A stretch of DNA of 64,000 bases. Origin: Takakia lepidozioides (lineage: Eukaryota; Plantae; Bryophyta). Positions 12,248 to 52,523 of the stretch are shown one piece after another (within the stretch, counting starts at the first letter, position 1; every line of letters begins with the position of its first letter). Both the position numbers and the translations under genes were made by a program. The DNA lies in contig CM060733.1 of the NCBI GenBank assembly GCA_030704615.1, positions 11,656,001 through 11,720,000 on the forward strand, in the 5' to 3' direction. Below the pieces are notes generated by a model. It did no database searches and had not been told where the DNA came from. It saw nothing but the letters and a program-made list of their open reading frames with translations.

Positions 12248-15200
12248 ATGGCTCCTCCTCTAGTCAGCACCCACGTTGACCAAGTACTAGGCCTTCAAGA
12301 CTTTTTCAAGCCAGAGGTATATCATATATTTCAGGTTTCCACACAAAAATTTGAATTGCATGTTTACAGTCTCCACATATGTACATTGTATCAAGATACT
12401 TCAATCTATTGGACTTGAACTGCCCAGCTGAAATTAAGTTCGAGTGAAGCACAGATCTAGTAGAACTACCTGAAAGCAGATGCCTTTGAGAAATTCATGC
12501 TATCCTGAAGACATCAATATGCCTGTTGTGATATCTAGAGGAACACACAGAAATTCAATCTAAATCTGCACCTTGGCTGTTCAGGATTGCTTGCAGGATG
12601 AGCTGGATATGTGTGTAGAGCTACATTTGGTTTTCTTACTTTGAACATGATAACAACAAACTTACGGACCTACACAACCTTACTAAAGACTCTTCTAGAT
12701 CACTGGACAATCCCACTGGTCTACTGGACAATGCCCGCTGAGGTGAATTCAAATTATCAAGATTGGAGTAACTGATTAGATCTGACCATGGCTCTTGAAT
12801 CAAGCATTCCATGATCAATTAAGTGGACAGCTGCAAATTACTGAATCTGCTAACTTGCATAGTGACATAATAAAGCTCGAGCTCTGATCAGTCCAGAAAC
12901 CTTGGAGGGGCCTCAACTATTCAGAGAAATGATCTTATATGGATGTCTTGGCTCAGATATGGAGGGCAGCAGCAATGGAATTTGCGGCCACTTTGACCCT
13001 AATGTTTATGAGCATCTCTGCCACAATTTCAATCCTGGAGCAGGGCTATTCCAGTCCCATCATAGCACTTGCAATAATACAAGGCGCCATTCTGTCTTTC
13101 TGTATTCTGGGGGCTGCCCCTGCATCTGGCGGACATCTCAACCCGTTAATCACAGTTGCAACTATGCTGACAGGGTACAGCAGCCCAGTACAAACCATAC
13201 TATACGTCACATGCCAAGCACTCGGCTCTATTTGCGCCAGCTTTGTTGTTAAGGTCAGTATCCAAGCACCCTCTTGAGATTATTAACTTTTCCTTTGAAC
13301 ACAGGAGAGAGAAAGGAGGTCCAATTATCAGTCTTAACTCTCAATTAAGTTTTGCGCCTCAGCATGGGCTCCTTGGCTGTTACATTTCCTTCATAAGGGA
13401 ACAAGGGCCCATTTGTGGGTTTTCAACTGGATTTTATCTGGCAGGGTATACATGAACCTAACAAATCTTTATTCCCTCGTGCTCACAGTCAAGGACAACC
13501 AGATTGAGGCATTAAATTGGAGATTAGTACATGACACTAATCTCAAATGCTGCCAATGTATATGTCATCTGACCTTACACAGTCATAACACGGGGTGTGA
13601 ACTGACAGTATACCATAGTGTGAGAAACGGACATCTTGCGAGAGCCTGTACAGTAATGGGCCAGTCACATTCCACAAGTCAGATCGAGGATAGGCCCACA
13701 TAGAGAGTTCAATAATTATATGAGGGGATGCCAGGCCTAATGCGACATGAAATTGTAAGGAATCTCACCGCTTAGTCCAGAGGGAGAAAATGTTGAGAGA
13801 AGAATCTTTTGAGACGGAGAGAGAAATAGTGGAAATCGAGGGTTGGAGATTCTAGAGAGAGAGAAGTCAGGAAGGCGCAGTACTTGTGGAAGAAGAGCTG
13901 GTCGTAACAAATAGCGATTTAACAACTCAAGAGAGCTGCAAGAGGCAGATGAGCAATTTACTAATCGGATAACATAACTCCTTGGAGAGTACACATGTTG
14001 GTCACATACGGGTTATAGAAGGCGCCTAGGAGTTTGCGCCTAGGTAGTTTTCAAGATGGAGATAGCATATACCAGATTTACTTCTACTGATACACAAGCT
14101 ACAATAGAGGATGGGTTCCGACCTCTTGTCGTGTAATCAGCCTTGTCCAGATGACACACATACTGTGGAAGCTGCAAACATGTCCGCTTGCAACTTCCAC
14201 TGCATTGAGGATTGTTCACCAGTTAGACAGCCTTTTCTCAGATTCCAGCACCCTAATCAGTTGGCCAACTTTCTAGACAGATGTACGCTGTCTATGACTA
14301 AATCGTTTATATGGACATAGAGATGCGACTGAATATCACTTGACAGTCAACGCCAGGCATGAAAAGTTGTTGCAACTGGGCGTACCTTTCTTTGGACCCT
14401 ACACTTTGAAAGACATTCTGCTGTTCAAGTCATGCCCAAAAATCACGTTTCAAACAAGAATTTCCAGCCACAGGCAACGTGATTGAGGCATGCTACTCGC
14501 TTAGAGCCTTGCTAGTGGATGAGCTACAACTGTTCACAGCGTACACATGAATTCAGAGAGCAGGTATGTCAGAAAAAATACCTCAACCGAACTCGACCAG
14601 TCGAGAGGGTCCCTTAGAAAGAAAACGGAACAATCATATCAAAACCTTCCAGATACCCTAGAACTCCACAAATCCGAATCCAAATCCAGCATCACAGATC
14701 AGTCAATGCGTAGAAGCAGGAGCCCAGATAGCCCTAGTGGCGCTTGATATGATACGACCCGAAACCCTACTCCCACCCACCCCACCTTCAATATGTTTTT
14801 CAAGAGAAACAAAATCCAACATTCAATCTCCAACCAAACTCTCTCTTTGTCCTCTCTTTCTTCCTCTCTTCAAAAGAATGTGACACATTCTAAAGTGGGG
14901 CATAGATTGAAACAATCCGTGCAGACAATGGTGGGGATCGAAATAGCTCAACAGTACAACCTCGGAGGCTGCGTGCTGCGGAAGACGCCATCGACGGGGT
15001 TGGCCAACGGGCCGGGTTTCCTCGCAGAAATCGGCTTCTCCTTCGTCGTCCTCTTCATCGTCTTCGGCGTCGCCGTGGACCCCAAGCTGAAGCTGGTGCC
15101 CGGCATTCCTTCGCTACCCTTCATCGTCGGGGCCGCCGTCGGAATGTGCATCTACGTCTCGGCCGGCCTTTTGCCGGGCTACCTTGGCGCCGGGCTGAAC

Positions 15201-15434
15201 CCCGGGCGGTGCATCGGCCCGGCCGTAGCCCTGGGGGGCAGCCTGTGGCACGGCCACTGGGTGTTCTGGGCTGGACCCTTCACCGCGGCCCTCGCCTTTG
15301 CGTGTGTCTTCCACCTAGTCCCGCCCAACCATGTGGAGCTCTACCGCGATAAGCGGGACATGATAAGCGGTGCCCGCCGCTTTATCACGAGCAGCTCCAG
15401 TCTCAAGGTTGACAGCTGCGGAAATGGACTATGA
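12248..15434 (+). CDS. XIP: Aquaporin, XIP subfamily, ~291 aa; join(12248..12316,12957..13253,14925..15434)
   Basis: In-phase GT-AG introns. VLGLQDFFKPE|IWRAAAMEF; SGGHLNPL; loop C LGGC; GAGLNPGRC (NPxRC and LGGC cysteines are diagnostic of XIPs); HWVFWAGP. Confidence 0.92.
13619..14004. mobile_element. Possible solo LTR in XIP intron 2
   Basis: TG...CA ends flanked by CATAG/CATAC (4/5 TSD-like match), with a GA-rich interior. Confidence 0.35.
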
Positions 15435-16829
15435 TGGAATTCTGTCACACTCTCTTTTCCATCCATCCAATACGAAAATGAAAGGGAGTAGCCCTTGGAA
15501 CACCATAAGTTACGTTTGCTTCGGCAGGGTTAACTTTCAATAGCAAAGGACGGCTGACACGGGTATTTGTATAGTATGACTAACATAGGAACATTCTCAT
15601 GTACGTACAAAATTTTCAAAAACAAATTCTTTGTATTTCGAGTGCTTATTTCGTGGAGAATAGTGCCACGTTGTTAGAGTTGCTTACGGAGTGTAAGCAC
15701 CTTGTGTTAATGGCACAAAGTGACACTCTGAAAGGCTCCTCATTAGCATGACAAAGCACTTTTCTTTTGAAAATTCTTTAAGTTGGGAAAGCAACCCACA
15801 CGCATTGCTTCACTGGTTCTCCCCTCTCGGGCTCCGCCCTCGTGGCAAGGGGTTCAAACCTGTGAAGCACCTCGCGTAGGTTACTTACCCTACACAATAT
15901 TTGATCTGAAATTCCAGGGATAGACTTTCGGGTTCAGTTCAATCTAAGAGACATGGGACAAAGATGGTGACATGACACATGATATCCTACGTTGTTGTCA
16001 GATTTGACACAAATTAAATATATTTTGGGTTGTTGAAATTTTTGAATTAACTCAAGTGATATGTCTAAAAATCCAGAAATATTACATACTTGTCGAAAAA
16101 TAAGAAAATTTGGAAAATCTCAAAAAATCTACTAAAGGACAGAATACATACTTGTGCTATATACTACTCTGGACACTGCCCAAATGTGTGTCATAGCATG
16201 GCTACCCTCGAAAAGGGCAAAAACGTCTATGTTGACATCATGACGTTTTGGGGTTGATCCTCTACCTCATTCCTACCCCATATGTGGCTGAGAAGGTCCA
16301 CCCTGCAGCCAAAATATTCTATTGTCTTGCATCATTGCATTGAGATACTAAATGCCTTCCTAGTTACACAACCATATGTAGAGAGAAGACACAAAAGAGA
16401 CCGCCATGACAAATCAGCCTGTAAATGGACACTTTGTTTTGTAAATGCACAGATGGGTGGACCAAAAATTGCGTAATATGCAATTTCTGCAGTGACCTCC
16501 TTCCATGGTTTTACTCATATTTGTCCAACATCTCAATATTTCATCTAAATTTATATGTGATAGGGTTTCTAACTACAATAGGTATGTGTACCAACTCTTA
16601 GATTGCAAAAATAATCATGAACCAGAGAGCTATGGACTTTTAAAGTTGATTATTGTGGACTGCAGATGTTACACATAAAACCTTATGGACTAAAAAAACA
16701 TCATCTACACTCATATAATGGCACAACGGAAAACATATTAGGGGTGTCATTTCTAACCAACCCAAATCCACTTTTATATGGACAAGTTACCCTAGATATT
16801 GAAAGCTATGGACTATTTTATACCTTAAG

Positions 16830-18245
16830 AACAAATTGTCCATAGCATACTATGTTTTGGGTTTTTTGCAGCTGGCCAATTTTTGATCACCATAACCATT
16901 CGATCAAGATTCTCAAGTTGCAAACGACATCGTTTGAGTGCTGTCAAAACCCCAACAATGCTAAAAATTCTTTCAGTCTCAATTTGAGAACCTGGGATGC
17001 CAATGATTTCTTTTTCCAAGAACCCAACATTTGGAAATTGGTTTTCATGGTCTCTCCACCATGCTAGAGGATCGATGCACGCATTGGGCTGAATTGACAA
17101 GCATAGTTCAATTCCCCTTTCACAAGCACTTTTGAGGACTCCTCATCTATTTGCCTGTGAACCAAACATCATGTTGTCTTCATCGACATCAACATGAGCC
17201 ATCTCTGCCCCAGATGAGCCTTGTGCCATCGATGAAGTTGTTGCAGGGTTTAATAATGCAAAACAAACCATTGATAAAGGAACAACAATGTTCACATCAT
17301 ACTGAGAGACTAATGCAATAGTAGAACCTCGACCAGCATACTCAATTACACACCTCAAATTCTTGAAGCGGGGTTCTAACATGATAGCAAGCATATTGTG
17401 AGATTGCTTGTTATCAAATAGCACAAGAAATCTGATAAACGGCTCAAGTACAGAAATTACTTGTTGTCGCATTCTGCTATGAAGAATAAGACCCTGGCTA
17501 CTCCCATGTACATGTACCTCCCACCCATGCACTTGCCCTGCTCGACTATGTCCAGATATCCTACTAGTGCAAGGATTACCCACAACGGCCTCACCCCCTA
17601 TCACGCCATCTACGTCATTTATCATCCACTTCATCGAATTCACATTCTGCCATGACCGATACCCACAAGACTCCATACTAGAGAAACGACAAAAATATGC
17701 CCCACTCATCCTAGCCATTCGCCGCCAAGGATGGCGCATTGGTCCACTAACCGTCATCACGGCTGGCACTAGGGGCGGCATCCACAATGCCAGTATTAAC
17801 GACTTGCACAATAATTTCCATATTCCTATCTCCCCGATCCACAAATGCTTCCAATTTACCTCACAGCTCTCCGCTCCCTCACCGCCAATATCACCAACAA
17901 ACGGAAACTTGAATCCAACCTAGCTGCACCGCCCTAGACCCCAGGGGCACCCCCCTTGGGGGGAGGACGCCCCCCCCCCGGGATTCATAGTCAAGCCCGA
18001 GCCCCCACACCTCTGGTTACGAGGTGCCCAACCGGGCACCCGCTTTACCATAGGGCCCACCCCGACAGGGGGCAATAGCCGCATGACGAAGTGGCTCTTA
18101 GTTACGCCGGCTTTGGCCGGAGTATTATCTTTATCTCAAAATAAGAAGCTCTGCCTCAAACACATCTGGAGGCTTAATCTCATCCTCAACTCGAACAATC
18201 TCAGCTCGCATGTTCACACACATAGTCATAGCCATAGTGATTTGC
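16830..18245 (-). mobile_element. hAT transposase C-terminal half (pseudogene), interrupted by a LINE
   Basis: ITMAMTMCVNMR...EAELLI|LHSRMRQQV...HNMLAIMLEPRFK, then the hATC dimerisation domain DPLAWWRDHENQFPNV...IPGSQIETERIFS...LENLDRMVMVIKNWP. Confidence 0.85.
17492..18139 (+). mobile_element. 5'-truncated non-LTR retrotransposon with restriction-like endonuclease (RLE; Dualen/R2-group-like)
   Basis: PDILLV...HFIEFTFC...EKRQKYAPL...GW...AGTRG is a PD-(D/E)xK RLE motif. The GC-rich 3' UTR ends in a TTATCT-type tail. AATAAGA TSD at 17485-17491 and 18140-18146; removing the insert restores the hAT frame. Confidence 0.8.
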
Positions 18246-18599
18246 AGAAGGTACCACTTGAATGTTTTTCACAACAATTGTTTGAATATTTTGGAGAAGT
18301 TGAGCTGCAACTTGAGGATCGACAACCTAGAGAGTTTGGTTGCAGCGTGTCAAATTATTCAAGCTATTGCAGAGGTTTGAAGTTATAGAAGTGGTTCCAG
18401 ATGATCCAAAGATGGACGACTTATCTTTATGCTTATCTTTATCTTTATACTTATCTTTGTAAAAGACAGCCTCGCCATCTAGACTCCACAAGAATGCATC
18501 CAGCTTGTCATCATCGTCTGCACTAGTAGACACAAATTGATCTCTCGCTGGAGAATGACCCATCAAGGGTTCCATGGGAATTTGATCACATAAATGGGC

Positions 18600-19465
18600 A
18601 GAAACGAACAATGTTGTACCAATAGTACACACATTAGTTTTTGACAAATCTCTTTCAAGAAGGCAGCTGGTTGAGATTTCGTATCAGATTGCACATCACT
18701 ACTTGGAGAATGGTTCTCTTCAATAGCTTTACGGTAATTTTCTTTTTCTGAATCAAGAGCCTCCACGTAAGTCAACGGTCTTCCGTTCACCGTTTCACCA
18801 GCTATTATCCACTATATGGCATGATCCCGAAGTGTTTTATCCATATGATATCTACACATCCGAAGCCACATATTATGAATCAGATGCAAAGAAATAATAC
18901 TAGTTAGTTACAAGAAAACTAGAAATAACTTACTTCCCATAGGCCTTGGCACTATTCTCTGATCTCCATCCAATGCTCTTGCAGAACTAGTATTTTTTTT
19001 CTAGATGCGTGTTACCAAGGCCTCATCTCCCAACCCGTTGAGGCAAATCCCGGGTCATCTTAGAAGTGTATGAGCACAGTAGTCTTACCTACATGTACCT
19101 TTGTAAACCACACATAATCTGTAAATCACCATTTTTCTGCTTTGGTGTGAGAGACATGGGATGGGGCCGGGCCCAGACTCATCAATATTCGATGTAGGGT
19201 GCTTCTTCATTAAGAAATAAACGTTAACTACCTCCTTCAGGTGGTAATCCCTTGTGATCTTCAGGCCAACATTGGTTCACATTCAGATGTAGTTCTTCGA
19301 CATACTTTGGGAAAACCTACAAAATACATGTACAGCTTAGTCAACATTCTAAGATTGAACATGAATTAATAAATTATCAAAAAATAGGAAGATCTGTATC
19401 TTACCGCAAAACATGACCAAGCCTCGTGTGTATAATGCTATCATCTTGATCTACTCTTCGCAACT
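18600..19465 (-). repeat. Dispersed repeat (degraded spliced TE gene), inverted copy of 22283-23197
   Basis: Shared peptide remnants DKTLRDHAIQWII.GE.V.GRPLTY.EALDS in opposite orientations; the nucleotide similarity is visible by eye. Confidence 0.75.
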
Positions 19466-20047
19466 TTGTTGAAGAATGAGGAAATGCCAAGTGCATTAGT
19501 AGGCGAACAAGTAGTTTAGACCATAGGGACTGTATAGTTGGCACATCGGCTGACTTAACATCAATCTCTCCTCTATTTTAGTCACGATGTCACTTTTCTT
19601 GGTGGATCTTCCCGAGGAAGCACTGCATGACCAATGGACTGTCTCATCAGCGGCAACCTTTACTTTTGCATAGCGTACATATGCCAGTTTGTTAAATTTC
19701 ACCGGAGGAGATATATTGGTCTTAATTATTCTTTGTTCTTGTCCGGCTTTGATCACACGTCCAAGAGCCATCACCATTGAAGTAGAAGGAGGGCCCACGC
19801 TCCTACTGCTATGCTGGCCTAGGCGTACAGGTGTCCACCTATCTTATGCAGTGATTAAAAAAAAACCCTTGCTTGCACTCCTACCTACCAGCCCATTGGC
19901 CACTCCAACCACCTTACACTACATGTGTCTACCTCCCATCGACCCACTTCCTTCCTCTCCAAGCCTCCCGCGACCCCACGCTATTGGTTGTTCCCACAGC
20001 GTCCGGTCCTTCTGATCTTCCCAAACTCCCCAAATCAGTTGGGGTAC

Positions 20048-21127
20048 ATAGTTATGGCGACCTTTTGACGATTTGTTGTGAATCATGAACCCTTTATCAC
20101 AAACTTTGCATGTGTTGCGTACTCACCGGAACGATTCAATTCCAAAGGCCCACATTTCTCTTCGGTAGGGCCCAATGCATTGACTTTGGACATTTGATGG
20201 AGTGACAGAAGCCCTCTGAATCTGGAATGATCTACTTCACTTCCGAACATGGGTTTGTTTTGGTCAATTTTTGGCGTCCCATTTGCACCTGCTTCACAAA
20301 AGTTTATTTTACACTTGCACTTGTCACATTCGAATCGCATGTGAGGAAGCATGGAAAAAGTGAAAAACGAGTCTGGTCACACTCTTGTTTTCTATGCAAT
20401 TGATATCTATTTTCACCCTGCTTGTACTCAGGGTGACCCCTTGCCCAAGTCTGTGCTTCCAATCCTTGCCGGTACCGGAATGTCCATTGCTTGTTAGCCG
20501 GTCACTTTGCGGGCTGAAATTTCCCAACACATGTATAACATGCACCATGACAGGATGCTACATGCAATTGTATGTATGTGTGGACAAATGTATGTAGAGA
20601 TGGTCCATATCCTTTCATATTGCCATGTGAATAACATCTGACATGATGGTACTGATCACTGTACCATCCACAAACTTTTTACTGAATTTTCTATTTATCA
20701 TCTTTGATTTATATTATTATCTATTAGATATAGGAGAATATTATGAAACAAGTTTGTTATCTTTGTCTATGTGATTTTTTGGTAAGATATTCTTGCTCTC
20801 ATTTGCACTCTAATGTCGACCTTCACTTAAACATTTGAGAAATGAATTGGTCTTTCTTTTGGGGGTTGGTATCTCGTGAGCACAATCCACGGGTTATAGG
20901 GGGTAATATGTTTGAAATGGAAATACAAGTCATAGGCAGACATGGGGTACTGCCATGCTAATAGGGTCAGTTACATGGTCTATGAGTCTAATTTAGTTAA
21001 AACCCTCTAGATATATAATAAAACAGAAATATTTAATAGTGAAATACTACTTTCAATGATAAATCAACAGCAATATTATTAGCAAAATGTGAGACATACT
21101 CAAGTTTGGACAATTTCGTTGACGAAG
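20048..21127 (-). repeat. ~1.1-kb dispersed repeat, inverted copy of 32743-33812
   Basis: Colinear reverse-complement similarity along the whole length (e.g. TTCCAAAGGCCCACATTTCTCTTCGG, CAAGTTTGGACA). Confidence 0.85.
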
Positions 21128-22282: not shown

Positions 22283-23197
22283 GAGTTGCGAAAAGTAGAT
22301 GAAGATGATTTTAGCATTGTACACACGAGGCTTGGGCCATGTTTTGCGGTAAGATACAGATCTTACTATGTTCTTTAATTTATTAGATCATGTTCAATCT
22401 TTGAATGTCTACTAAGTTGTACATGTATTTTGTAGGTTTTCCCAGGGTATGTCTAAGAACTACAATCTAAATGTGAACCATGTCGACCCGAAGATCACAA
22501 GGTACTAGTGGACTGCCACCTCATAAACATTTATAATTTCTTAATGATGAAGAAGCGCCCTACATGGAATGTTGATGAATCTAGGCCCATCCCATGTTTC
22601 TCACACCAAAGCAGAAAATGATGATTTAGAGATAATGTGTGGTTTATAAACATACATGTACGTAAGAGTTCATTGTGCTCATACACTTCTAAGATTACCA
22701 TGGATTTGCCTCAACGGGCTGGGAAAGTGTTTTCTAACAAGACAAGAATAGGCCTTGGTATCACGCATCTGGAAGAAGCATTAGTTCCAGAAGAGCACGG
22801 GATGGAGATCACCGGATATTGTAGTGCCAAGGCCTATGGGCATTAAGTTATTTCTAACAATCTTTTGGTTTTGTTGTAACTAGTTAGTATTTTGTTTCCG
22901 TGCATCTGAATTATAACTATACGGCTTCGGATGTGTAGATATAACCAGATAGATAAAACACTTCGAGATCATGCTATACAATGGATAATAACTGGTGAAA
23001 TGGTGAAGGGAAGACCGTTGACTTACTTGGAGGCTCTTGATTCAAAAAAAAAAAAAAAAAACCTTAAAGCTATTGAAGAGAACCATTCTGCAAGTAGTGA
23101 TGTACAATTTGATACGAAATCTTAGTCAACTGCCCTTCTTGAAAGAGATTTGTCGAAAACTAATGTGTGCACTATTGGTACAACATCGTTTGTTTCC
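22283..23197 (+). repeat. Dispersed repeat (degraded spliced TE gene), inverted copy of 18600-19465
   Basis: See partner copy; GT-AG intron remnants are retained in both. Confidence 0.75.
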
Positions 23198-23222
23198 AAT
23201 TTAATGAAAGACTAGTGTCACC

Positions 23223-24638
23223 GGTGCATGAGCAATTCTTGGTGGCCAATTTACACATAATTCAATGAATGACGTCGACCGACCATTCGTAGGGTTGCCG
23301 GAATTCTACCTGGCTGCCACCGCCAACTACCAAACATTTTGTCATGTAGGTATCATGTGGCTATTGCAAAGCCCAGATGATTATCAACATCACTTCCCGG
23401 TAGCACACATGCATGGCCCACATACTCTACATTCATAGTTACATACAAACAAAATAATGTGGACGTGTTGCCCAAGAAAGTGGAATTTATGGTATCTCTT
23501 TATCACAAAAAACTACGTCTATACCTTCCAATGCAAGGTGGGACAATCAGCGTTTATTCTTCTCATTTTTCAAAAGTAGAATTGTGTATACTACCCAGCG
23601 CCCCATGTGGCGAAAAAAATGCGGGTTGGACTAGTGACTGAGTGGGCAGCATAGTGGCAGCCTAGTGACTGACTAGTGGTAGCCTAGTGGTTGGACTAGT
23701 GGTTGGACTAGTGGTATACTAGTGTATGGTGTGCACATGTGTTGTGTGGTTTTGGACAGCGATGTAGTTGTGTAGCGATATGTATGTGCACAACAAGTGA
23801 CATACTATATGTATACTACGTCTCCGCAAGCATGATAAAAGCCATGAACTACTTTCATGCCTTTCCTCACTGCCACCAATATTTATGCCCGGGCGAACCA
23901 TACTTCTAACCCCTCCTCAGGTTCTTCTCTGACCAAAGGGTGTTCCTACCGAGGACGTGGTCCAACTCCGTTTGCAGTGGGTCGTCTTCCTCATTAGGAT
24001 GAGGCAAGCCACAATGTGAAATATGTATATACTAGACCTCAACACGGTACATGCCTTCAGGAATAACTCGACAATGATATGTGTCTTTGCCAAACGCACC
24101 AGTGACAACTCCAGTGCCGGCCTTATGTCGTGGTGATGAAGGATCATACAGGTGGACTCTGTCCTTCAACTTAAACTGCACCCAACACCCACTACAAAAT
24201 GCATTTCTAGAACGGTCGCTATATGACAAGTGGCATGTTTTAACAGATCCATAATTGCATTCATACAGATTTTCTGGCGACATCTTCTTGTGCATCGTTC
24301 TTGTTTAGGCGAAAATTTGGAAAACCATGCTTTCATTTTCCTTTAGTGAGGTAGGAGATCCAAAAAATGGGAGCCTTTTGGAAAAAATTCACCAAGGAAA
24401 AGAAAAGAAAAGAAAAGCATTGGATCATACAACATTAGAGCCGAGCACATATTGTATAGTTATTTTATATTCCAGGAAAAACCAATTTGTTATTTTCATG
24501 AATTCCCAGTGACAAAAAAAACTTGAAATCCAATATAGAACTAAAGGTCCAAAAATTATGAAACCACCTCAATGCACCCCTCGTCATCGAGGGCTCTCCA
24601 ACAATATTAAGAACCCGGGTGGAGGCCTTACGGTTTCC
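23223..24638 (+). repeat. Dispersed repeat, direct copy of 31915-32748, with an internal insertion at ~23605-24200
   Basis: 23223-23600 matches 31915-32330, and 24205-24638 matches 32355-32748. Confidence 0.75.
23620..24200 (-). mobile_element. CACTA/EnSpm Tnp1-like domain fragment plus GACTAGT minisatellite
   Basis: VHLYDPSSPRHKAGTGVV...YHCRVIPEGMYRVEV*...LPHPNEEDDPLQTELDHVLGRNTLW resembles the Tnp1/En-Spm-associated domain. GGTTGGACTAGT-like repeats lie at 23624-23725. Confidence 0.55.
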
Positions 24639-24699: not shown

Positions 24700-27262
24700 C
24701 AGTGTTGGCTGGGTGTAGCACTCTACCCCGGTTAGTGAGTCGGTTACCACCCCGATTAGTAGATATACATAACCGCATACAGGGTACTTTTTGCAAAATA
24801 GAGCAAATAGATAACCGATGGTTGGGAGGTGAGTATGTATATGTATATGTACCCTATATTAAGGTTAGCACTACACTGTATACCCGGATTAGTAAGGCGT
24901 TTTGACCCCTAGAGCGGTTACAGTTATGTGTAAGACACGTTCCTGCTCACACCACGCAGCTGCATGTCCCTCCATTGAAGGCATTCAATGAATCAGCAAA
25001 GCTACATCAGCATCTAAAACATGAATACGATGTCTAGTTAAGCTTCGGGAATATGAACTATGAATAGATCGTTTCGCTTCAAATTTGTCACACATTGTTT
25101 GCTTTGAATCTGTTTTTCATAGATGTACGTAGAGGAGGGAGGTAGAGTTAATGCCATTAGCATTGGGGAAGTTTGCTCAACAATCTCTCATCCTGAACCT
25201 TTGAGTTTGACTAAGCGTGGTGAGGTGAACCTGCAAGTTGATGGGGATGCAGCACATCTTGCAGCGATGCACCTTCAAGCTGGTTTTTGGAAACCACATA
25301 ATCGGAATAGCGTTTGTTGGGGATTCTTTGCTGTGAATGATAATCTTTCTGTGGATGTTGCAAACCCTCAAATTTGAGATGCATTGTTTGCAGATGACAC
25401 AACTTTCAATAGTGTATTTAATCAGCAAAGTACACTCAGGAAGGGACTAGTCAAGTATACCAAGAAGCATGGTATCACTGCTATGCACACGCATATTCAA
25501 AATGTTCATCCCCATTTATTGACTAAGAGAAAAATTCAACTCGTGGAGAAGAAAAGTGACGACACACGTCAGCCAGCAAAGAAACTACTGGCGCTGCCAT
25601 CACAGCTTTCTTTGGTTTGAGTAATCCTTACTCAAAACATGATGATGCATAAGGGCAGTTGCAGCCTCCGGTGGACCAAAAATATTGTCACAACACTGTT
25701 TTTTTGGGACCTTGATTAGTTGTAAATTATCATACTCCTAAATGGCAATGCTGATAGTAAAAAGGGACTAAGCTATGAAGGCTCAACTAGATATATTTCC
25801 CCTGCTCCAAGTCTAATAACCAAAAAAACAAATGGTTAGAAATTATGGACTTTGGAACAAGTCCAAAAGGATTTGTTATAATCCATATAAAAAGCCGTTA
25901 TGGACTTTTTTTAGAGCATGATTAATAGAAAATTAGAAAAAATGACTTGACCAAATGTGCTGTGAGGGATAAAGAATCTAGAATGAAAACATCCACTCAA
26001 AATATTGAGTAATATAAACTTTATGTACTATTTTGAGCCTTCAAAATAACTATTTTCGTAAAGTCCTTTACATATAGAATTCTTTGAAATATCAACACTA
26101 CCTCATTAAATATACATAGACCAAGGGTAAACCTCCGGGGTGGATCAAGGTCAAATTTGAAAAAAAAACTATCGTGATTTGAAAATAAAGTATTTAATGG
26201 TCAATCATATACGGTTGAAATTGTAAATTGAAGCGAATCCAATGGTTGAGGATTCGCCACATCCCCCTTTATGTACTTTTAGGGACTCATGGTGTGTTTC
26301 ATTTTGGTCCACCGTAGGCTGCAACTACCCACAAGTGAAGTTTCTTCAAGACCTCACCTTGTACGTGTGCAAAGGTTATAGGCCAATCTCAACGGTAGAA
26401 AATATATGACTCATGAGGTTAATATTACGTCAGTGTCCTCGAGTCGTGTTTCCCTCTTGTCACCTGTTTGTCAAGAAAACAACATGGTACATAAGATTAT
26501 GGACCAGTACGTGTTGCCTTCCTTGCGAATGCTAGCACTATATCTACAAGTTTTGATTTGTGGATGAGTAGGGGTGGCGTGGATACATTTGCATTGGTTA
26601 TAAATTTCTTGAGCGACAAATGGGTTCCAGTACACTTAACACTTGGACTGTTTGAGGTTTCAGATACACATGATACTCCTATGGCAATCCAGCTTAAATC
26701 CATGCTTGATAAGTTTGGCCTCACCAAACGAGTAATTGTCGTTGTGAAGGATGAAGGTGGCAATCTGGGAACCATGACAGCAACTCTCAGATCGATTGTC
26801 ACATGTGAGCCATTGCAGATTCAAAGGGTACACGAGGGTACTTGTTTTGGTCACGTTTTGTCCAAAACAATACAATAATATGCTACCGATGACAAAACTG
26901 TATCAGCAAATATGACAAGTGTCAGTATTAGTGATGCCCAAGCTACTTTGCAAAAGACCATAATGTGGATAAAAAAATCAGGCAAGGGGCAAAGGGAGTG
27001 AAAACAGGCATATATGGATATGTAGTTGAGGCCTCCTGTAAAAAACACGTTTTGCAAGCAACGTTATGTTATGTTTCAGGAAACTCTTGAGTTCAAGCAA
27101 GCGATCATTATGTGTTATGGTCGGCAAGTGTCACTTGCTTTGCAACAACGAGTTCCAAAACCTCAAGTTTGGGCGATTTCAGAAGCAATTACATCTATCC
27201 TGAACCCAGTGGTAACAGCTTGTGTGTTGAATCAATCACGTGGACATTGGCTCCTATCTGAC
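24700..27262 (+). mobile_element. hAT element left end plus N-terminal half of transposase (pseudogene)
   Basis: TIR CAGTGTTGG preceded by GTTAAAAC; CGGTTA subterminal repeats; BED-finger-like CWGFF...CIVC...HIQNVH; catalytic SFDLWMSRGG, VVKDEGGN, CFGH. It ends abruptly at GHWLLSD. Confidence 0.85.
25653..26330. mobile_element. MITE with 29-bp TIRs inserted in the hAT transposase
   Basis: GGGCAGTTGCAGCCTCCGGTGGACCAAAA / TTTTGGTCCACCGTAGGCTGCAACTACCC (27/29). Flanks are ATAA/ACAA, and the transposase reads through (HDDA|QVKFLQDL). Confidence 0.85.
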
Positions 27263-30200
27263 GTAGACCCTCTCTTCACAAAACAATATGCCTCAAACAC
27301 CAATGTCTGCACATCCAACAAAAGAGGGATCAACTCCAGGGTATAGTTTAGATACACCACGATATGAAGTGAATGCAATAGATTGATCACTTACACTCTG
27401 GCCCTCTGTTCGCAACCCCTGTGTATTGATGCAGAACCATTTTTTGAGGAGGACCGGGGTGACACTTTTCGGTGTCCATCTTGCCACAACATTCTCTGTG
27501 GTCTTCCCTCTTGTGGCAAGGACCATCATACATCCACCGTCATCCAGGAGCATCCCCGCCAGCCCAAACCCGGCTCTCCAGTAGTCCTCAGTAAACCTGT
27601 TCCAGGTGGGCACACCATCCAGGCCCTCCAGCAGCTCCCCATCTGGAATATCGAGGAGAATCATATCGCAGGCTCTCTCCACCTCACCCCCCCCCCCCCC
27701 CCCCCCCCCAGTGCTCTTGCAATCCGTGCTCACAATCGTGAAGAATTCCATCATGGCTTCCAAACCAGGGGTGTCTTTAGGCTCTGTACCGGCAGCCCTC
27801 TTCTTGGTTTTCCCCTTCAGCTCCTCCAGAGACTTGCTGTGTGCCACCTTCTTCGTCCTGGTAGCCAGAGTGTCAAGGAAGCTCTCATTGACACATTCGA
27901 TGATGGTTGGGGGTTCTAGCTTTGGCCTCTGCGGAAACGTCACCGCCGAACACCGCCGTGTAGGTTCGCCCTCAGATGCCAACTCCTTGGCAGAGCCAGT
28001 CCCAGTCCGAACTGACTTGGGAACCCGGACGACCGATGACTTGGTAGCAACAGCAGCAGCAGCAGTCGCAGGACCTTGCACAAAGTCGTCGTCGGAGTCA
28101 CTCCCTTGGGGCCCCTCCTCCGCCTCCTCTGGTGCCCCGGTGGTTTTCTGTTTTTTGGGGGTTACTGTACTCCCCTGTTTCCGTGTCCTTTTCTTTTGTC
28201 CTTTATTCTTTTCATTCAATTTCTCCTGAATACCTGCAAGCGCTTTCGCCTCTTTTGGACCCAGCGGAGGCAGCGGAGCCCGGTTTCGTCGGGCCTCCGC
28301 ATCCAGCTTCAATTGAAACTCGGATGAGTCGAGCGAGCCGGGCGGAAGGTCCACATACCAAGGGCAGTCGCGCAATGTTCCAGATGTCACTCCTTCACGA
28401 TAACGTCAGTGTACATAGAGTCAGCCCCAGGGATCCTCCATGCGAGGAAGAATGGCAGCTCGAAGGACAGATGACCTTTCTCCAAAAGAGAGAACTTGCA
28501 GTACCTGCATTCAAGAAACACACACAGAATGAGGTCCCGGGAACGAGGTAAATTTCAGGGAATGAAACTAGAAAAATGAAACTGAAACTGAAACTGGGCC
28601 CGGAACTGGAAAAATGGCGCCGAATTTCCAGTCTCGGTGCCAGCCACCCCAGGGACTTAGCCATTTTCGGGGCCCTGAACTGGAAATTCGGCGCCATTTT
28701 TCCAGGTTGGGGCCGAAAATGGCTAAGTCCCAGAACTGACTGGGCCCGGAACTGGAAAAATGGCGCCGAATTTCCAGTCTCGGTGCCAGCCACCCCAGGG
28801 ACTTAGCCATTTTCGGGGCCCTGAACTGGAAATTCGGCGCCATTTTTCCAGGTTGGGGCCGAAAATGGCTAAGTCCCAGAACTGACTCGGCCCGGAACTG
28901 GAAAAATGGCGCCGAATTTCCAGTCTCGGTGCCAGCCACCCCAGGGACTTAGCCATTTTCGGGGCCCTGAACTGGAAATTCGGCGCCATTTTTCCAGGTT
29001 GGGGCCGAAAATGGCTAAGTCCCAGAACTGACTCGGCCCGGAACTGGAAAAATGGCGCCGAATTTCCAGTCTCGGTGCCAGCCACCCCAGGGACTTAGCC
29101 ATTTTCGGGGCCCTGAACTGGAAATTCGGCGCCATTTTTCCAGGTTGGGGCCGAAAATGGCTAAGTCCCAGAACTGACTCGGCCCGGAACTGGAAAAATG
29201 GCGCCGAATTTCCAGTCTCGGTGCCAGCCACCCCAGGGACTTAGCCATTTTCGGGGCCCTGAACTGGAAATTCGGCGCCATTTTCCGAGGTTGGGGCCGA
29301 AAATGGCTAAGTCCCAGAACTGACTGGGCCCGGAACTGGAAAAATGGCGCCGAATTTCCAGTCTCGGTGCCAGCCACCCCAGGGATTTAGCCATTTTCGG
29401 GGCCCTGAACTGGAAATTCGGCGCCATTTTCCGAGGTTGGGGCCGAAAATGGCTAAGTCCCAGAACTGACTGGGCCCGGAACTGGAAAAAAGGCGCCGAA
29501 TTTCCAGTCTCGGTGCCAGCCACCCCAGGGATTTAGCCATTTTCGGGGCCCTGAACTGGAAATTCGGCGCCATTTTTCCAGGTTGGGGCCGAAAATGGCT
29601 AAGTCCCAGAACTGACTGGGCCCGGAACTGGAAAAATGGCGCCGAATTTCCAGTTTCGGTGCTAGCCACCCCAGGGACTTAGCCATTTTCGGGGCCCTGA
29701 ACTGGAAATTTGGCGCCATTTTCCGAGGTTGGGGCTGAAAATGGCTAAGTCCCAGAACTGACTGGGCCCGGAACTGGAAAAATGGCGCCGAATTTCCAGT
29801 CTCGGTGCCAGCCACCCCAGGGACTTAGCCATTTTTGGGGCCCTTAACTGGAAATTCGGCGCCATTTTCCCAGGTTGGGGCTGAAAATGTCTAAGTCCCA
29901 GAACTGGAAAAATGGCGCCGAATTTCCAGTTTCGGTGCCAGCCACCCCAGGGACTTAGCCATTTTCGGGGCCCTGAACTGGAAATTCGGCGCCATTTTCC
30001 CAGGTTGGGGCTGAAAATGGCTAAGTCCCAGAACTGACAGGGCCCGGAACAGGAAAAATGGCGCCGAATTTCCAGTTTCGGTGCCAGCCACCCCAGGGAC
30101 TTAGCCATTTTCGGGGCCCTGAACTGGAAATTCGACGCCATTTTCCCAGGTTGGGTCCGATATTGGCCAAGTCCCAGAACTGAATGGTCCAGGAACTAGA

Positions 30201-30911
30201 AAAATGGCGCCGAATTTCCAGCCATCCCCCACGGCCCGAATCAGGAAATTCCAAGGAAGCCATTTTTCCAAGGACTTCTTCACAAATAATTTTCATGCGC
30301 TACATAAGGCTTCTTACATCTTGGAAATGTAGGGACTAAAAAGAAAGGCATCGCATATGTACCTGTACAGAAGGCGCATTGCCGCTTTGTCCGCGTTCGA
30401 CTGGTCGGTGAACTCGTGGCTCCGCCGGGCATGGGGTATCTCTCGAAAGAATAGGTCGATTTTGTAGAGCAGAAAATACCTCATCACATAGTCGCGTAGG
30501 CTCTCTGCTTCACCAGAAATCTCCAGCTTGAACTGATGTGCTCGTGTGTCAAGGTGCTCTTGTGCATTCGTCGTCACCTGTGGAAATTCTCCATCAGACC
30601 GCTTTCCTCAAAAAATACAGTAAATCCACCCGGTACAAGCGTAGTATAACGATAATCCATGAAAATAGAGAAACATGCTTGCTTATACTGATAATAGTCA
30701 GAAATGTTGATTTGAGTATTTGCCCTAAGAGATAGATAAATTTGTACATATTGATAAGGCTCTCATTTTTTAATAATAGGGTCATGAATGCATGGGCGGG
30801 CCCTGCCAGTACGACCCTTGGGGTGAGCTCATAAGCCCACCGCCCATTCACCGGGTGGGCGAGATTCTGAAATTTTTCTAAGTCCTTGTTCATGTACCGT
30901 GGCGAACCTTC
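27263..30911 (-). pseudogene. Multi-exon TE-like gene fragment ending in a putative beta-class N6-adenine/N4-cytosine methyltransferase domain
   Basis: Phase-compatible exons 30577-30363, 28504-27395 (one frameshift at ~28392) and 27306-27263. Motifs CDMILLDIPDG...WN...LLDDGGCMMVL...KKWFC...|TLVFEAYCFVK. A possible further exon lies at ~30911-30813. Confidence 0.55.
28585..30262. repeat. 146-bp tandem satellite, ~11.5 copies, with interleaved internal inverted repeats
   Basis: The 146-bp period is seen in the sequence and in the ORF track. Each monomer holds A=CTGGAAAAATGGCGCCGAATTTCCAG, B=GGGACTTAGCCATTTTCGG, then exact revcomp A' and B'. Confidence 0.97.
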
Positions 30912-31095
30912 TAACAGACCGGGCAGACCCTCCAATAGACCGATCCAACCTTCTAGCGGACAGGCAGGTAGACTCTCCAGCAGACTGGGCAGACCCCCTC
31001 CAGCAAACCGGCAGACTTTCCAAGCAGACCCCCCCCCTTCGGCACCTCCGGCAAACCGGCTTGGACCCTCCAGCAGACCGGCAGACCCTTCGACA
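30905..31095. repeat. Degenerate ~20-bp minisatellite (CAGACCGGCAGACCCTCCAG-like)
   Basis: About 8 imperfect copies visible. Confidence 0.7.
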
Positions 31096-31914
31096 AAATA
31101 TATTATTAATAACACACATTACTGCCGCAATACAACCTAACGAGATTTAAACATCACACCTCGTGTTTATCATTCATTGCTCTTAACCATCACACTACCC
31201 ACCACTTTCTGCAAACCCATGCAATAACTAATGCTTTATGTGCATATTGTGGGCCCCAGCAGACTAGCTCATGTGTTTTGTGGGACTCGCTTGTTGGTAG
31301 AGACACCACAGCAACAACAGACTGGGAGGGTCCATAAGAGCGCTCCCACCCTCCGCGACCCCTCTACCACACGCGGGCCTGCCGCAACCACATGTGCGGG
31401 CATTCATGACCCTATTATTGTTAAATGAGAAGCTATTGATAAAGGTGAAGCATATTGATAGTATAGTCATGCTAAAAAATGTGAATCCATCCTTAGTGAC
31501 ATTTGCAATTGTGGGCACCACAAATTTTGATACATATTGAAACGATCATGCACAATTGAATACATATTGATCAATGTAGCACTAGCACTGCTCGATTCTC
31601 TTGACAACCTCTTTGTGCTAATTGTGAAATCTCAAGTTTTTGGTTCTTTTTTTCTCTTACTTTTCTGTATGCAAACAGTCCATCATCAATACTAGGAAAA
31701 CTCAATTCGTGTCCAAAAGAAACATGAAGTGAAAGAAATGGTTTGGAAAGATCAATCTTAAAATATGGAAATAAAGAAACCATGCCAACATGGCAGGACG
31801 CATCTTACAAAGCGTAAGATGCGTCTGAAAGGTTTGGAGGATCTTCGAATCACGTGAAAAACGTCCATTATGCACCTTTGATACGTGCCAACTTAATGAA
31901 CGGCTAGTGCCATA

Positions 31915-33812
31915 GGTGCATGAGGAATTCCTGGTGGCCAATTTGCACATAATTCAATTAATGACATCATCCAACCATTCGCTAGGTTGCCAGGGTTGTC
32001 TGAATTCTATCTGGCTGCCACCGCCAACTACCAGACATTTTGTCATGTAGGTATCATGTGACTATTGATGGTAACATCCTAGGCAAAGCCCAGATGATTA
32101 TCAACATCACTTCTTGGCACCACACATGCATGGCCGGCATACTCTACATTCATAGTATGTTACGTGCAAACAAAAAAAAATTGATGTGTTGCCCAAGAAA
32201 GTGGAAATTATGGAGTCTGTAAAAGCTACGTTTATACCTTCCGATGCAAGCTGGGACAACCAGCGTATTTTTTTCTCATTTTTCAAAAGTAGAATGTGTG
32301 GCCATCTGTGGATTCTACCCAGCGCGCCCAAGTGGCCAAAAAAAGAGCGGGCACGTCTAGAAAGGCCGCTATATGACAAGTGACACGTTTTAATATCCAC
32401 AATTGCAGTCATACGGATTTTCTGGTGACAACTTCTTGTTCATTTTTCTTGCCAGTTACCCCCCAAAAAAGGAGTCTTTTGGCAAAAATTCACAAGAAAG
32501 AAAAAAACAAAACATTGTATCATACAACACTAGTGTGGCATGTGCCATTGAACACGTATTGTACAGTCATCTTATATTCCAAAACAAATCCAATTTGCTA
32601 TTTTCATGATTTTCCAGTGACCAAAAATACTTTAAGTTCAATATCTTCCACACCGTAGGTCCAAAAATTATAAAACCACCTCATTGCACCCCTCCTTATT
32701 GAGGGGTTTCCAGCAATATTAGGAACCCGAGCGGAGGCCTCACGGTTTCGCCAATGAAAATGTCCAAACTTGAGTATTTCTCACATTTTGGTAGTGAAAT
32801 ACTGCTGTTTATTATATTATTAAAACTAGTATTTCACTACTAGATGTTTTATTATATATCCAGAGGTTTTAACGTTTTAACTAAAGTATACTCATAGACC
32901 ATGTAACTGACCCTATTAGCATGGCAGTACCTATGTCCGCCTATGACTTGCATTTCCGTTTGCAAACATATAACCCCCTATAACCGTGGATTGTACTTAC
33001 AGGATACCCAACCCCCAAAAGAAAGACCAATTCATCTCTCAAATGTATAAGTGAAGGTGGACATTAGAGTGCAAAAGAGAACAAAACATCTTACCAAAAA
33101 CTCAGATAGACAAAGATAACAAACTCGTCTCATAAAATTCTCCCTATATCTAATAGATAATTACAAAGTCAGTAAGAAAATTAGTGGATGGTACAGTGAT
33201 CAGTACCATCATGTCAGATGTTATCATCAACATGAAAGGATATGGGCCATCATGCATACATTGTCCACACATACATACAGTAGCATGTAGCATCCTATCA
33301 TGGTGCATGTTATGCATGTGTTGGGAAATTTCTGCCCGGCTAACAGGGCAATGGACATCCCGGTACCGGCGAGGGGCGAGGGGACAGTTCCGGCGCCCGA
33401 GTTGGAAGCACAGAGTCGGGCAAGGGGTCACCCGGAGTACAAGCAGAAAATAGATATCAATTGCATAGAAAACAAGAGTGTGACCAGACTCGTTTTTTTC
33501 CTCACATGCGGTTCGAATGTGACAAGTGCAAGTGCAAAATAAACTTTTCTGAAGCAGGTGCAAATGGGACGCCAAAAATTGACCACAACGAATCCATGTT
33601 CGGAAAGTGAAGTAGATCATTCCAGATTCGGAGTGCATCTGTCACTCCAACAAATGTCCGAAGTCAATGCATTGGGCTGCCAACCGAAGAGAAATGTGGG
33701 CCTTTGGAATTGGATCGTTTCGGTGAGTACGCAATTACACATGCAAAGTTCGCAAAGCTCATGCCAGAGTGTTCATGATTCGGCGCAAATCGTCAAAACA
33801 TCGCCGTAACTG
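31915..33812 (+). mobile_element. Non-autonomous composite repeat element
   Basis: The left part matches 23223-24638 (direct) and the right part matches 20048-21127 (inverted). No coding capacity was recognised. Confidence 0.6.
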
Positions 33813-39836: not shown

Positions 39837-41923
39837 ATGCCTCCACCCACAACAGATGCGGAACCACATCACGTAGACTGGGAGAACATCTATCAGGTAC
39901 CAACACAGTGGACAGCACGGCAAGACTCTGTAAAGGGAAATTATAGCGGGAGCGTATCGAATGTGCCAACGTTGAAGAAAAAATTGAAGGAAGTTGTCGG
40001 GCCATACGATTTCAACAACCCTAATGTACGTGCATGATTCCTTGTTTTCTGAATTCCAAGTATCTGTAATTTGGACATGTGTCATGGTGTTACAACTTAC
40101 AAGCTCAGTTCGATGGAAGAATAGAGAATCAAAACACTAATCTGGAACATAACCCCCTCGTATCGATGGGCATTGGAACTATCCCAAGTACTGTTCCTTG
40201 TAAGCCGTGTAGGTTTCAGGACCATTGCTGTCCCATTGCTGTAAGACGTTAGCAGTATATAGCCGTTTGGGAGAGAAAGATACTTGTCGATCTGCTTTTG
40301 TAAGCATAATCCACATTGGTGCGAGTCTAAGTTAGGACAGAGTTGTAGCTAAAACTTGTACATCGTATAAGCTGAACGCATTACACACCTTCACGCAATC
40401 TGGATCATTCTTGAGTATATTCTTGAATCTCTTGAAAACCCATCTGGAAAGAGAAGGGAACTGGTAGATCTAAATATAAAAGGAAATTACACACCATGAT
40501 AGAAGCATGGTGGAGCTATTGTCAGCCAGCAGGTCTCTAGAAAGAGTGTACTTAAACATGAATAGAAGTTTTGTCTAACAATTTGCCTGTTTTCCCTCGG
40601 CTAGTAACTGAACTTTGCAGACTTTAGATTTTGAAGAGTTCTAAAGTTGGTTTGCGTGTCAACAGTAGAATCGGGTAAACCAGAGGTAAATCATCCTGGC
40701 AGTATTGGGTCAGGCCACTGAGGTTCAAAGTCGAGTGCCCAGAGGATGGTCCTATATATTATAGCCTCATAGGTACGTGCTCAAATCTTATACTCTTTGC
40801 TTCTTAGAGGTATTCTGATGCTTGACGAATTGACATGGTCAAATGATCCGATCTGCAGATCTGGCGAGCTTCAGTGGTTGAGTTTGCTGGGACGGCAGCC
40901 CTCACCTTCATGAGTATAGCTGCGGCAATAACATGTCAACAACAGGCGCAATCACACGGCTCCTCAACTTCGGCCGCCACATTCCCCACAGTCCAAGTTT
41001 TAATCTACTCTTTCTGCATTCTAGCAACAGCTCCTGTCTCAGGTGGCCACCTCAACCCAGCCGTCACCTTCGCCACCTTCTTGACCGGCCATGCAACTTT
41101 GGTCAGATCACTCTTTTATCTGGTTGCTCAAACTGCAGGCGGTATCCTAGGGGCTTATTTAGTGAAGAACATCATTTCTGCAGATTTGGAATCTACACAT
41201 CACCTAGGTGGATGCTTATTGAAAGATGTAGTTGCAGACCAGTCGACGGTTGGGTTGTCCCATAGGCAAGGGACTTTAGCAGAGGTCGTCTTCACCTTCA
41301 TCTTTATTTTTGTATCATACCAAGTGAGCCTGGAGCCCAGAAGCCTAGTAGTAACCTGGCCAATAGTTGGCCCCTTTGTTATAGGCACGGTCTTCGCCCT
41401 CCTCAACTTCGTCTCTAGGGGACTAGCTTCCCAAGCTTACACGGGTGCTGGTATGAATCCAGCAAAGTGTTTCGGGCCTGCGGTGGTCTACGGGAGAGAC
41501 TTATGGGATCCCCAGCCAGTGTTCTGGTCTGGCCCCTTGTTTGCTGCCATGGCCTTTGCGCTGATCCACCATCTGGTCCTCAGTAGAAACGTTCGAGATT
41601 TTCAACCTGGAGATTATCATCAGCCTCTGCTCCCTCTTAATTTTGAGTACCCAATGCCCGTCGGGGACCGCGTTCTTACCGATATGCTCCATGGAGAGAG
41701 GCCGGCTAGTCCGGTGGCTGGTGAGTCCCAGGAGCCTAAGAAGATGAACGTGGTGCTGCACATAAAGGCGGCCATGTTGCATCCGGGCAACAGCGAGAGA
41801 AATATTGAGGATGGCAGAATGCCGAGTGTGTCGGAGTTCCACAGAAGGTCGAGTGTATCGGAATTCCAAAAGGAGGTCGCAGATGCGACACTCTCTAGTT
41901 TCACAACAGTGATACCTATGTAA
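39837..41923 (+). CDS. XIP: Aquaporin, XIP subfamily with long termini, ~417 aa; join(39837..40025,40859..41923)
   Basis: EVVGPYDFNNPN|IWRASVVEF (same intron position as the paralogue); SGGHLNPA; HLGGC; GAGMNPAKC; VFWSGP. The start codon is uncertain because more upstream exons are possible. Confidence 0.9.
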
Positions 41924-51500: not shown

Positions 51501-52523
51501 CTACAGTAAGGTTCCCTCTCTGGTTGCTAAGCACATCTAGTGGGTGCTCTCTACTGCTATGTGCAAGCAAGGAGCTGGTCGTTAGGCGCATTCTAGTAAT
51601 TGCATTTCTCTTTGTATGAAGCAAGGAGCCAAAGCACTTTGTGGCCTACCTCCTCAAGGCACTTCGTCTTGTACAAGACTAGATTTATTTCAGTTCTTTG
51701 TTTGTTCTACCCTGTTCCATCAGCCCTTGTGACCCTCTCTGAATGTTACAACGTTTCTTTCTTTCTTTCTTTCTTGAACTTTTCGACATTTGTGTTCAGG
51801 TATGTGGCTCCTGAATATGCAATGACGGGGCATCTGCTGGTGAAGAGCGATGTTTACAGCTATGGAGTTGTGTTGCTTGAGCTTCTTTCTGGCCGAAAGC
51901 CGGTGGACATGTCTCAACCACCCGGACAGGAGAATCTGGTCACATGGGCACGCCCACTGCTTATAAGTAAAGAAGGGTTGGAGCTACTAGTTGATCCAGC
52001 CCTAGAGGGCAATTTCCCCTTTGACAATTTCGCAAGAGTGGCTGCCATAGCTTCGATGTGTGTACAACCTGAAGTATCACACCGGCCTTTCATGGGGGAA
52101 GTTGTGCAAGCCTTGAAACTAGTATACAACGACTCGGATGCAAGTGACTCTGGTCCTGGAGAAGATTCTCCAACCCCGCTTAAAAAAGGGGCAGGCCATG
52201 ACCCACGGTCACTGTTTTTGCCTGACAATTCATTTATTAGTGTTGATTATGACTCAGGCCCGCTAAATCGGCAGGACCTTGAGCAAGGGCGGCCTCTCTC
52301 TGCCTCAGCAGTGTTGACAGGTTCCGGGCGCTTTATTCGGCAGCTCTCAGGTTCTTTCCGGCGTCACAGTGCCTCGGGCCCCCTGAAGACATCCACAGGA
52401 AGCAAGCCGCCAGCATGGTACAGATTCGGGGGCCCAAAGGGCGGTACTAGGAGTGAGCATGATGGTGTTGGTAGATATCACAGACCTGGAGTGCGAAGGG
52501 ACTTTTATGGGTTATGGCCATGA
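45562..52523 (+). CDS. ALE2: ALE2-like receptor-like Ser/Thr kinase; join(45562..45643,46199..46804,47046..47123,48323..48691,49128..49403,49876..50262,50903..51149,51800..52523)
   Basis: Signal peptide ([17 protein letters not shown]); Pro-rich region; [12 protein letters not shown] ectodomain; TM helix; kinase motifs [25 protein letters not shown]|YVAPE. All introns are GT-AG and phase-compatible; the 5' exons are less certain. Confidence 0.9.
47159..47446. mobile_element. hAT-type MITE in ALE2 intron 3
   Basis: CAGTGTTTTT...AAAAACCCACTG termini with a perfect 8-bp TSD GCTTGAAG on both sides. Confidence 0.9.

Follow-up and report, generated by a model that had tools for sequence, protein, structure and literature searches.

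The methyltransferase-like frame on the minus strand of the window, by which we mean the whole 64,000-nt stretch of Takakia lepidozioides DNA that was analysed, is part of a dead 3.3-kb gene fragment that carries a stop, a frameshift and a truncation at both ends. By homology, the stretch belongs to a land-plant family absent from Pfam, which is found among Adiantum proteins and in plant DNA of metagenome contigs. We give a probability of about 55% to the reading that this is the remnant of a many-copy, spliced gene, likely the accessory of a large DNA transposon, which would couple a ParB-like domain to a methyltransferase fold with a rebuilt motif, the domain being more likely a pseudo-enzyme or weak enzyme than a normal catalyst.

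In the window copy, DMILLDIPDG begins at 27667 and is followed downstream, in a single frame, by WNRF, YW, MLLDDGGCMMVL and KKW; the open reading frame spans from 28405, through this motif, to a GT donor at 27394. At 27395..27682 lies the N-terminal half, with motif IV, of a domain resembling beta-class amino-methyltransferases (family HMM, iE 3.6e-13); the motif IV equivalent, D-I-P-D, is at 27652-27641. This half is followed by an 88-nt phase-0 GT-AG intron (27307..27394) and by a downstream exon, TLVFEAYCFVKRGST (27261..27306), which is severed at a junction and continues in frame in other copies. The entire large exon (27395..28504, minus strand) comprises a C-P-W-aromatic-x-D segment, which matches a fern profile with an iE of 0.044, a basic low-complexity linker and the methyltransferase half; its frame is interrupted twice, by a premature stop (28389-28387) and, near 28373, by a frameshift of 1 nt, and at both breaks other copies differ from that of the window. 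Upstream, an inferred large intron (28505..30362) is delimited by splice signals read from the sequence, an AG/GT donor at 30363/30362 and a TGCAG acceptor at 28505; its length varies among copies, and joints in DNA runs skip portions of it. Beyond the intron lies an upstream open exon piece (30363..30615, minus strand), part of the same abundant repeat as the gene, marked by a step in depth and cut near 30615, a boundary that is approximate; the upstream exon pieces showed no significant likeness to the fern proteins (hhalign probability 0.4% for 30363..30615). A comparison of the window with other copies gave no clear signal of purifying selection (16 differences; 5 of 14 changed codons synonymous). 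Directly upstream of the truncated gene, 30620-31500 is occupied by another repeat, of intermediate depth, in which short direct repeats rich in GC occur.

Membership of the family can be considered real because a phmmer search with a 96-aa piece of the window against 1.84 billion representatives returned, among 13 matches at E<=1e-3, ten homologues with E values from 6e-8 to 5e-4; the other three (P0001, P0002 and P0009) were dropped as repeat-protein artefacts. Cluster mates of the relatives include P0019, which is Adiantum nelumboides MCO5554666.1, and P0014, which hhalign aligned with the fern profile over both halves with a probability of 96%. A profile search retrieved 14 proteins, nine of which are annotated paralogues from Adiantum, the longest having 958 aa (P0024), and a search with P0015 led to five metagenome loci of decayed plant DNA, two of which (L001 and L002) are one place. 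Pfam gave no match to the window peptide at E<=10, and so stayed silent on PF01555, the family proposed in the initial annotation; on the relatives its best score was 13.7 bits against a cut-off of 26.7. Likewise, a word-indexed homologue search with the window reading frame found no match among proteins of 185-590 aa or 591-2000 aa, and searches of PDB sequences with the peptide and two profiles found none that was significant, the best being a SAM methyltransferase at E 1.6. Pattern searches, which see close relatives only, found none in viral contigs and phage records, none in metagenome contigs with the window as query, and none in prokaryote genomes with P0016. Evidence for a mobile-like high copy number comes from the nine Adiantum paralogues and from the contrast in depth: a single contig of run X5 has a depth of 162-173 over the gene, compared with 4-8 on neighbouring contigs, and in X1 the contig depths sum to 1e5 across much of 27261-30600 but to a few hundred on the adjoining hAT-like coding stretch. 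This contrast marks a far more abundant repeat, contig depth not being a copy number. In every genome sampled the copies are multiple and decayed.

The gene is also transcribed, judging by a single spliced contig from a run presumed to be RNA. In run X8, which bears the same species label, comes from a different study and is taken as RNA by guess, a 770-nt contig covers 27670-27395, then 27306-27261, and then 425 nt past the window cut, joining 27395 to 27306 so that precisely 88 nt are skipped; it comes from another copy, not from that of the window. Such a joint was present in one of the four runs compared over 27180-27760. The intron is retained in X5 and X6, which are DNA-type or unlabelled, and X8 and X9 also contain intron-retaining contigs from a more divergent copy; a processed DNA copy is a possible source of the X8 joint. 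The intron position is common to P0014, L002 and L003. In fact, the homologue P0014 reads in frame through an intron at the same place and then continues with TLIFEGVCLSK, and its alignment with the second exon of the window scored 34, a value reached by none of 2000 shuffles; with L003 the score was 32 (0 of 2000 as high) and with L002 a weaker 24, equalled by 37 of 2000. The 88-nt intron is thus real, beyond chance, in view of the exact skip in X8 and of the matching exon that follows a same-site intron in P0014, and the initial annotation was right to place it at 27394-27307 and to resume translation with TLVFEAYCFVKRGST. A separate group of contigs in X8 and X9 diverges from the window at 27393, two bases into the intron, and carries other letters thereafter, possibly as a subfamily with a different intron or as an alternative junction.

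The initial annotation had read the frame as the catalytic half of a beta-class amino-methyltransferase whose SAM-binding half had been lost, and the full-length relatives agree with both parts. Motif IV precedes motif I in all ten stored members of the family that extend into the motif I region, by patterns written after the sequences had been seen; the window copy ends before that point, and the relatives continue past its break with E(K/R/E)S, a LELGAGTG-like motif I and a strand ending in acidic residues, the GxGxG being intact in five of the ten. In place of the DPFxGxG motif that had been anticipated downstream, motif I has this LELGAGTG-like sequence. The motif I region of P0024 (819-868) matched a phage DNA-methyltransferase family (phrog_3008, E 7.5e-4), and that of P0014 matched positions 147-194 of PF01555 with an E of 0.062. 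A Rossmann-type methyltransferase match was also found at the level of structure: the Atlas model of P0019 335-545 superposed on 10 of 10 listed N6_N4/MT-A70 clusters with a TM of 0.63-0.73 over 171-195 residues, a comparison with predicted models on both sides, and two Pfam-less Atlas clusters, of 95 and 104 members, lie nearer still by features. By the same ESM Atlas features, the 99-aa window peptide scored 0.92 to PF01555 clusters, which is a lead only. The AF2 model of P0024 has a mean pLDDT of 44 and is unreliable outside about 270-370 and 610-732, and thus over its ParB-like region and its motif I half; the confident part at about 610-732, which includes the match to the window exon, resembled solved permuted amino-methyltransferases (MTA1c, Z 5.8; M1.MboII, 4.9; M.BceJIV, 4.3; M1.HpyAVI, 4.2; METTL3, 4.2; CcrM, 4.0), all of them weak values below 8 and with class I non-amino methyltransferases reaching a similar Z of 5.2-5.5. 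Foldseek with the P0024 model gave no match at E<=1e-3, and a wide VIA structure search with it was filled by helical bundles. Taken together, the motif order, the Atlas TM, the Z-scores and the phrog_3008 and PF01555 matches lead us to predict a beta-class order and an N6/N4-methyltransferase fold for the full-length members.

That non-coding repeat DNA resembles methyltransferase motifs by chance, as might be suspected of a peptide without Pfam or PDB sequence match and with a pLDDT of 40 in single-sequence AF2, is scarcely conceivable and is refuted by the ten homologues, the spliced contig, and the fold and motif I of the relatives. It is very unlikely, too, that the gene was left behind by an endogenous large DNA virus or by other non-transposon mobile DNA. 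Genes for ParB and amino-methyltransferases do co-occur in phage loci, and the Atlas feature clusters nearest to the window peptide are viral, but the gene has a spliceosomal intron at a conserved site, the viral and phage searches, seeing close relatives only, were empty, and the open frames scanned, 98 at the metagenome loci and 83 in the window between 16.5 and 36 kb, included no viral gene.

In the initial annotation DIPD was taken for a degenerated DPPY, and this view has to be abandoned. Among the 28 proteins matched out of 54 stored, a sample with many near-identical paralogues and from which the family member P0008 was missed, the first position is D in 27, the second, that of the first proline, is P in none, with no DPP anywhere, the third is P in 27, and the fourth is aromatic in only four, all of one subfamily (DLPF in three, DLPY in one). 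A statement that all plant versions lack the usual motif is thus true for the PP, the aromatic residue being kept in one subfamily. The (D/N/S)PP(Y/F/W) consensus occurs in none of the 28, and both the window and the spliced contig read DIPD, as does the high-depth DNA contig; over 27620-27670 the contigs of X5, X6, X8 and X9 that cover the stretch have no listed departure from the window. Since D-h-P-x is family-wide and DIPD unchanged in other copies, DIPD is, as far as sequence can tell, the working state of the family in T. lepidozioides and not the decay of a single copy. Judged by motif IV, the family protein is not a canonical beta-class enzyme; a D-h-P-x with a kept SAM motif would point either to an active site of a new type or to a pseudo-enzyme conserved over a long time.

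DLPY is a common reading in bacterial beta-class enzymes. The four proteins with an aromatic motif IV residue (P0007, P0012, P0016 and P0017) form a subfamily of their own and, given this residue, would be the first candidates for activity. In N4CMT and CcrM, the target amino group is held by the first residue together with the carbonyl of the first proline, and the tyrosine stacks on the target base (PMC10406627). The base-stacking aromatic is absent in most members, this lineage included, and for that reason we lean, modestly, towards a SAM-binding, DNA-engaging pseudo-enzyme or weak enzyme over normal 6mA/4mC catalysis in this lineage; the retained aspartate and motif I argue against a fully dead enzyme. 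Alternatively, the full-length protein of the same element could be an active DNA methyltransferase that uses a non-canonical motif IV to place 6mA or 4mC on the element encoding it. Such activity would accord with the near-invariance of the aspartate and the second proline (27 of 28 each), with the DLPF/DLPY subfamily, with the intact GxGxG in half of the proteins that reach motif I and with the splicing of one copy; moreover, the first proline contributes its main-chain carbonyl, so that its substitution need not kill catalysis. We nevertheless regard it as possible rather than probable, as 24 of 28 proteins, and this lineage, lack the stacking aromatic, amino-methyltransferases on transposons are not always active, those of DIRS1 having been judged inactive (PMC4738411), and major multicellular lineages are described as having lost 6mA (10.64898/2026.05.21.726589).

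The loss of the SAM-binding half had been placed at a hAT junction. The truncation there is real; a clean hAT insertion is not what produced it and was rejected, the hAT-like relic and the gene each being cut internally. A decayed stretch at 24900..27261 on the plus strand (start approximate), separate from the gene, was delimited by translation; we take it, by its motifs, to be the N-terminal half of a hAT-like transposase, and Pfam gave no hAT match to this half. The relic is cut mid-gene at the junction and in other copies runs on past 27264, and at 27261 the other copies of the gene continue with different letters in X1, X4, X5, X6, X8 and X9. The junction at 27261 is a copy-specific rearrangement, because it interrupts both partners in their interior and each of them runs on in other copies. 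The C-terminal half of a hAT transposase (PF05699, E 2.6e-9) lies on the opposite strand at 16828-17919, 7 kb from the hAT-like N-terminal half; either an inversion or another copy might account for it. One dispersed repeat is present as three pieces that overlap and are 71-82% identical (18601-21126, minus; 22284-24637, plus; 31888-33811, plus); their segments connect in a circular order, as would be seen with an element bearing direct repeats at its termini, and two of the pieces flank the block formed by the hAT and methyltransferase stretches. Host genes in the window comprise two for aquaporins (MIP) and one for a receptor-like kinase (12933-15431, 40847-41923 and 46150-52523).

The window further holds a Gypsy element (63615-56225, minus strand) and a partial second copy (53904-55491). 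A C5 cytosine methyltransferase (PF00145, E 9.4e-13, about 60440-60110) forms the end of its gag-protease frame and a PHD finger that of its pol; in KnitGypsy-Dnmt3 of Klebsormidium, by contrast, the methyltransferase domain lies in Pol (PMC5890265). The earlier remark that two methyltransferase classes lie on mobile DNA some 32 kb apart is correct insofar as both are real and both sit on repeats, but nothing links them; a connection with the Gypsy enzyme was rejected as there is no connecting evidence, and its closeness is probably coincidental.

The linked transposase that might have been expected was not found by Pfam in the 98 open frames of the metagenome loci or in the 83 of the window between 16.5 and 36 kb, and no element ends were detected in the window flanks or in the five decayed loci. 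The empty frames, the decay of most copies seen and an intron position conserved across distant plants would all be compatible with a host or once-domesticated gene that was captured as passive cargo (Pack-type or Helitron) and multiplied while playing no part in the element. We hold this to be improbable, since a gene that is multi-copy and decayed in every genome sampled is a better fit to an element's own gene than to independent captures, and since the same domain pairing constitutes a transposon accessory gene in algae.

This pairing concerns a conserved W(D/E)GN(H/N)R domain that lies upstream of the methyltransferase in the fern proteins P0023 and P0024 and at the metagenome locus L002. 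We take it, by its motif, to be ParB/Srx-like, and a ParB-like N-terminal domain is likely on the sequence; searches of Pfam, PHROGs, NCBIfam and PDB sequences returned no match confirming the label, and the AF2 model of P0024 has a pLDDT below 50 over the region. The corresponding exon is absent from the window, the fusion being known from P0023, P0024 and L002. A putative target for such a domain is found within the inferred large intron, where a tandem array of 11.3 units of 146 bp (28593..30221) contains, twice per unit, in alternating orientation and with a spacing of 72/74 bp, an imperfect palindrome of 22-28 bp centred on GGCGCC; this pattern has 15 matches in the array and none elsewhere in the window. 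The array is an obvious candidate binding site. Neither the ParB-like domain of the family nor this array had been noted in the initial annotation. At L002 an unrelated-looking 116-bp array lies about 1.3 kb upstream of the WDGNHR exon. The decayed gene at that locus is flanked by tandem arrays with units of 116 bp and about 71 bp (7245-7886 and 18120-19373). We hypothesize that the palindrome array, lying in an intron of the element itself, would be bound by the ParB-like domain, and that the methyltransferase fold would thereby be recruited to the DNA of the element, which the pseudo- or weak-enzyme domain would then shield or mark.

We infer that the family works like the accessory genes of the ParB-methyltransferase type carried by algal transposons. 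In Ectocarpus, Sola1-1_Ec32 encodes an accessory protein of 1104 aa with a ParB-like and an N4C/N6A methyltransferase domain, which has been proposed to bind and modify its own element; for green algal versions, the same source cites Iyer et al. 2011 (PMC12477816). Compared by description, the land-plant family shares with it the likely domain pairing, a similar size (958 aa in P0024) and a eukaryotic repeat context, and differs from this brown algal protein in its host group, in a D-h-P-x motif IV and in that no linked transposase was found. In red algal Plavaka, PAG2 combines PF01555 with SET and PAG3 a ParB-like domain with a 2OG oxygenase, and the ParB-type gene adjoins tandem inverted-repeat arrays (10.1101/2025.02.11.637652). 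Both systems thus place amino-methyltransferase and ParB-like modules on high-copy DNA with arrays of this kind, yet in Plavaka the modules reside in two genes, with PF01555 detectable and the arrays beside the ParB gene, whereas in the land-plant family they are fused and escape Pfam, with the array placed in an inferred intron. The PF01555 enzymes CcrM, M1.MboII, M.BceJIV, M1.HpyAVI and rotifer N4CMT resemble the family in the predicted fold and in having motif IV before motif I; the family departs from them in lacking (D/N/S)PP(Y/F/W), in scoring below the Pfam cut-off and in its spliced gene.

Among land plants, Marchantia MpDN4MT1a/b are beta-class amino-methyltransferases as well, encoded by two host genes, active in sperm and with a TSPPY motif (10.1101/2021.02.12.428880). 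Identity with this 4mC enzyme type was rejected on TSPPY against D-h-P-x, and the multi-copy nature of the family is a further difference, the two being set apart by published description. The DAM domains of DIRS/LTR retrotransposons are likewise prokaryote-like amino-methyltransferases carried by eukaryotic mobile DNA, but, being Dam/PCIF1-type NPP enzymes within polyproteins, they are of a different, retrotransposon-borne class (10.64898/2026.05.21.726589; PMC4738411), and those of DIRS1 were judged inactive (PMC4738411). Neither 'ParB' nor 'land plant' occurs in the main text of 10.64898/2026.05.21.726589, and the main-text part of PMC4738411 lists no such land-plant clade. Full-text literature searches retrieved no description of the family in land plants; supplements or Iyer et al. 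2011 may list members.

Transposon helpers that join ParB to an amino-methyltransferase have so far been described in algae, and the land-plant family is likely such a helper, a view based on this analogy. On the question of whether land plants have real 6mA or 4mC in their DNA, and which enzymes would write it, Marchantia DN4MT1 is the one published plant case found, and a Pfam-silent, repeat-borne family with a spliced transcript adds a candidate 6mA/4mC writer or a mimic of one. A bolder view, which we consider doubtful, is that seed-free land plants carry old, still transcribed giant DNA transposons whose ParB-methyltransferase would load on a parS-like intronic array and write 6mA/4mC by means of D-h-P-x, a self-marking that would counteract silencing. 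With this family, the idea put forward for algae, of an accessory protein that binds and modifies its own element, becomes directly testable in land plants.
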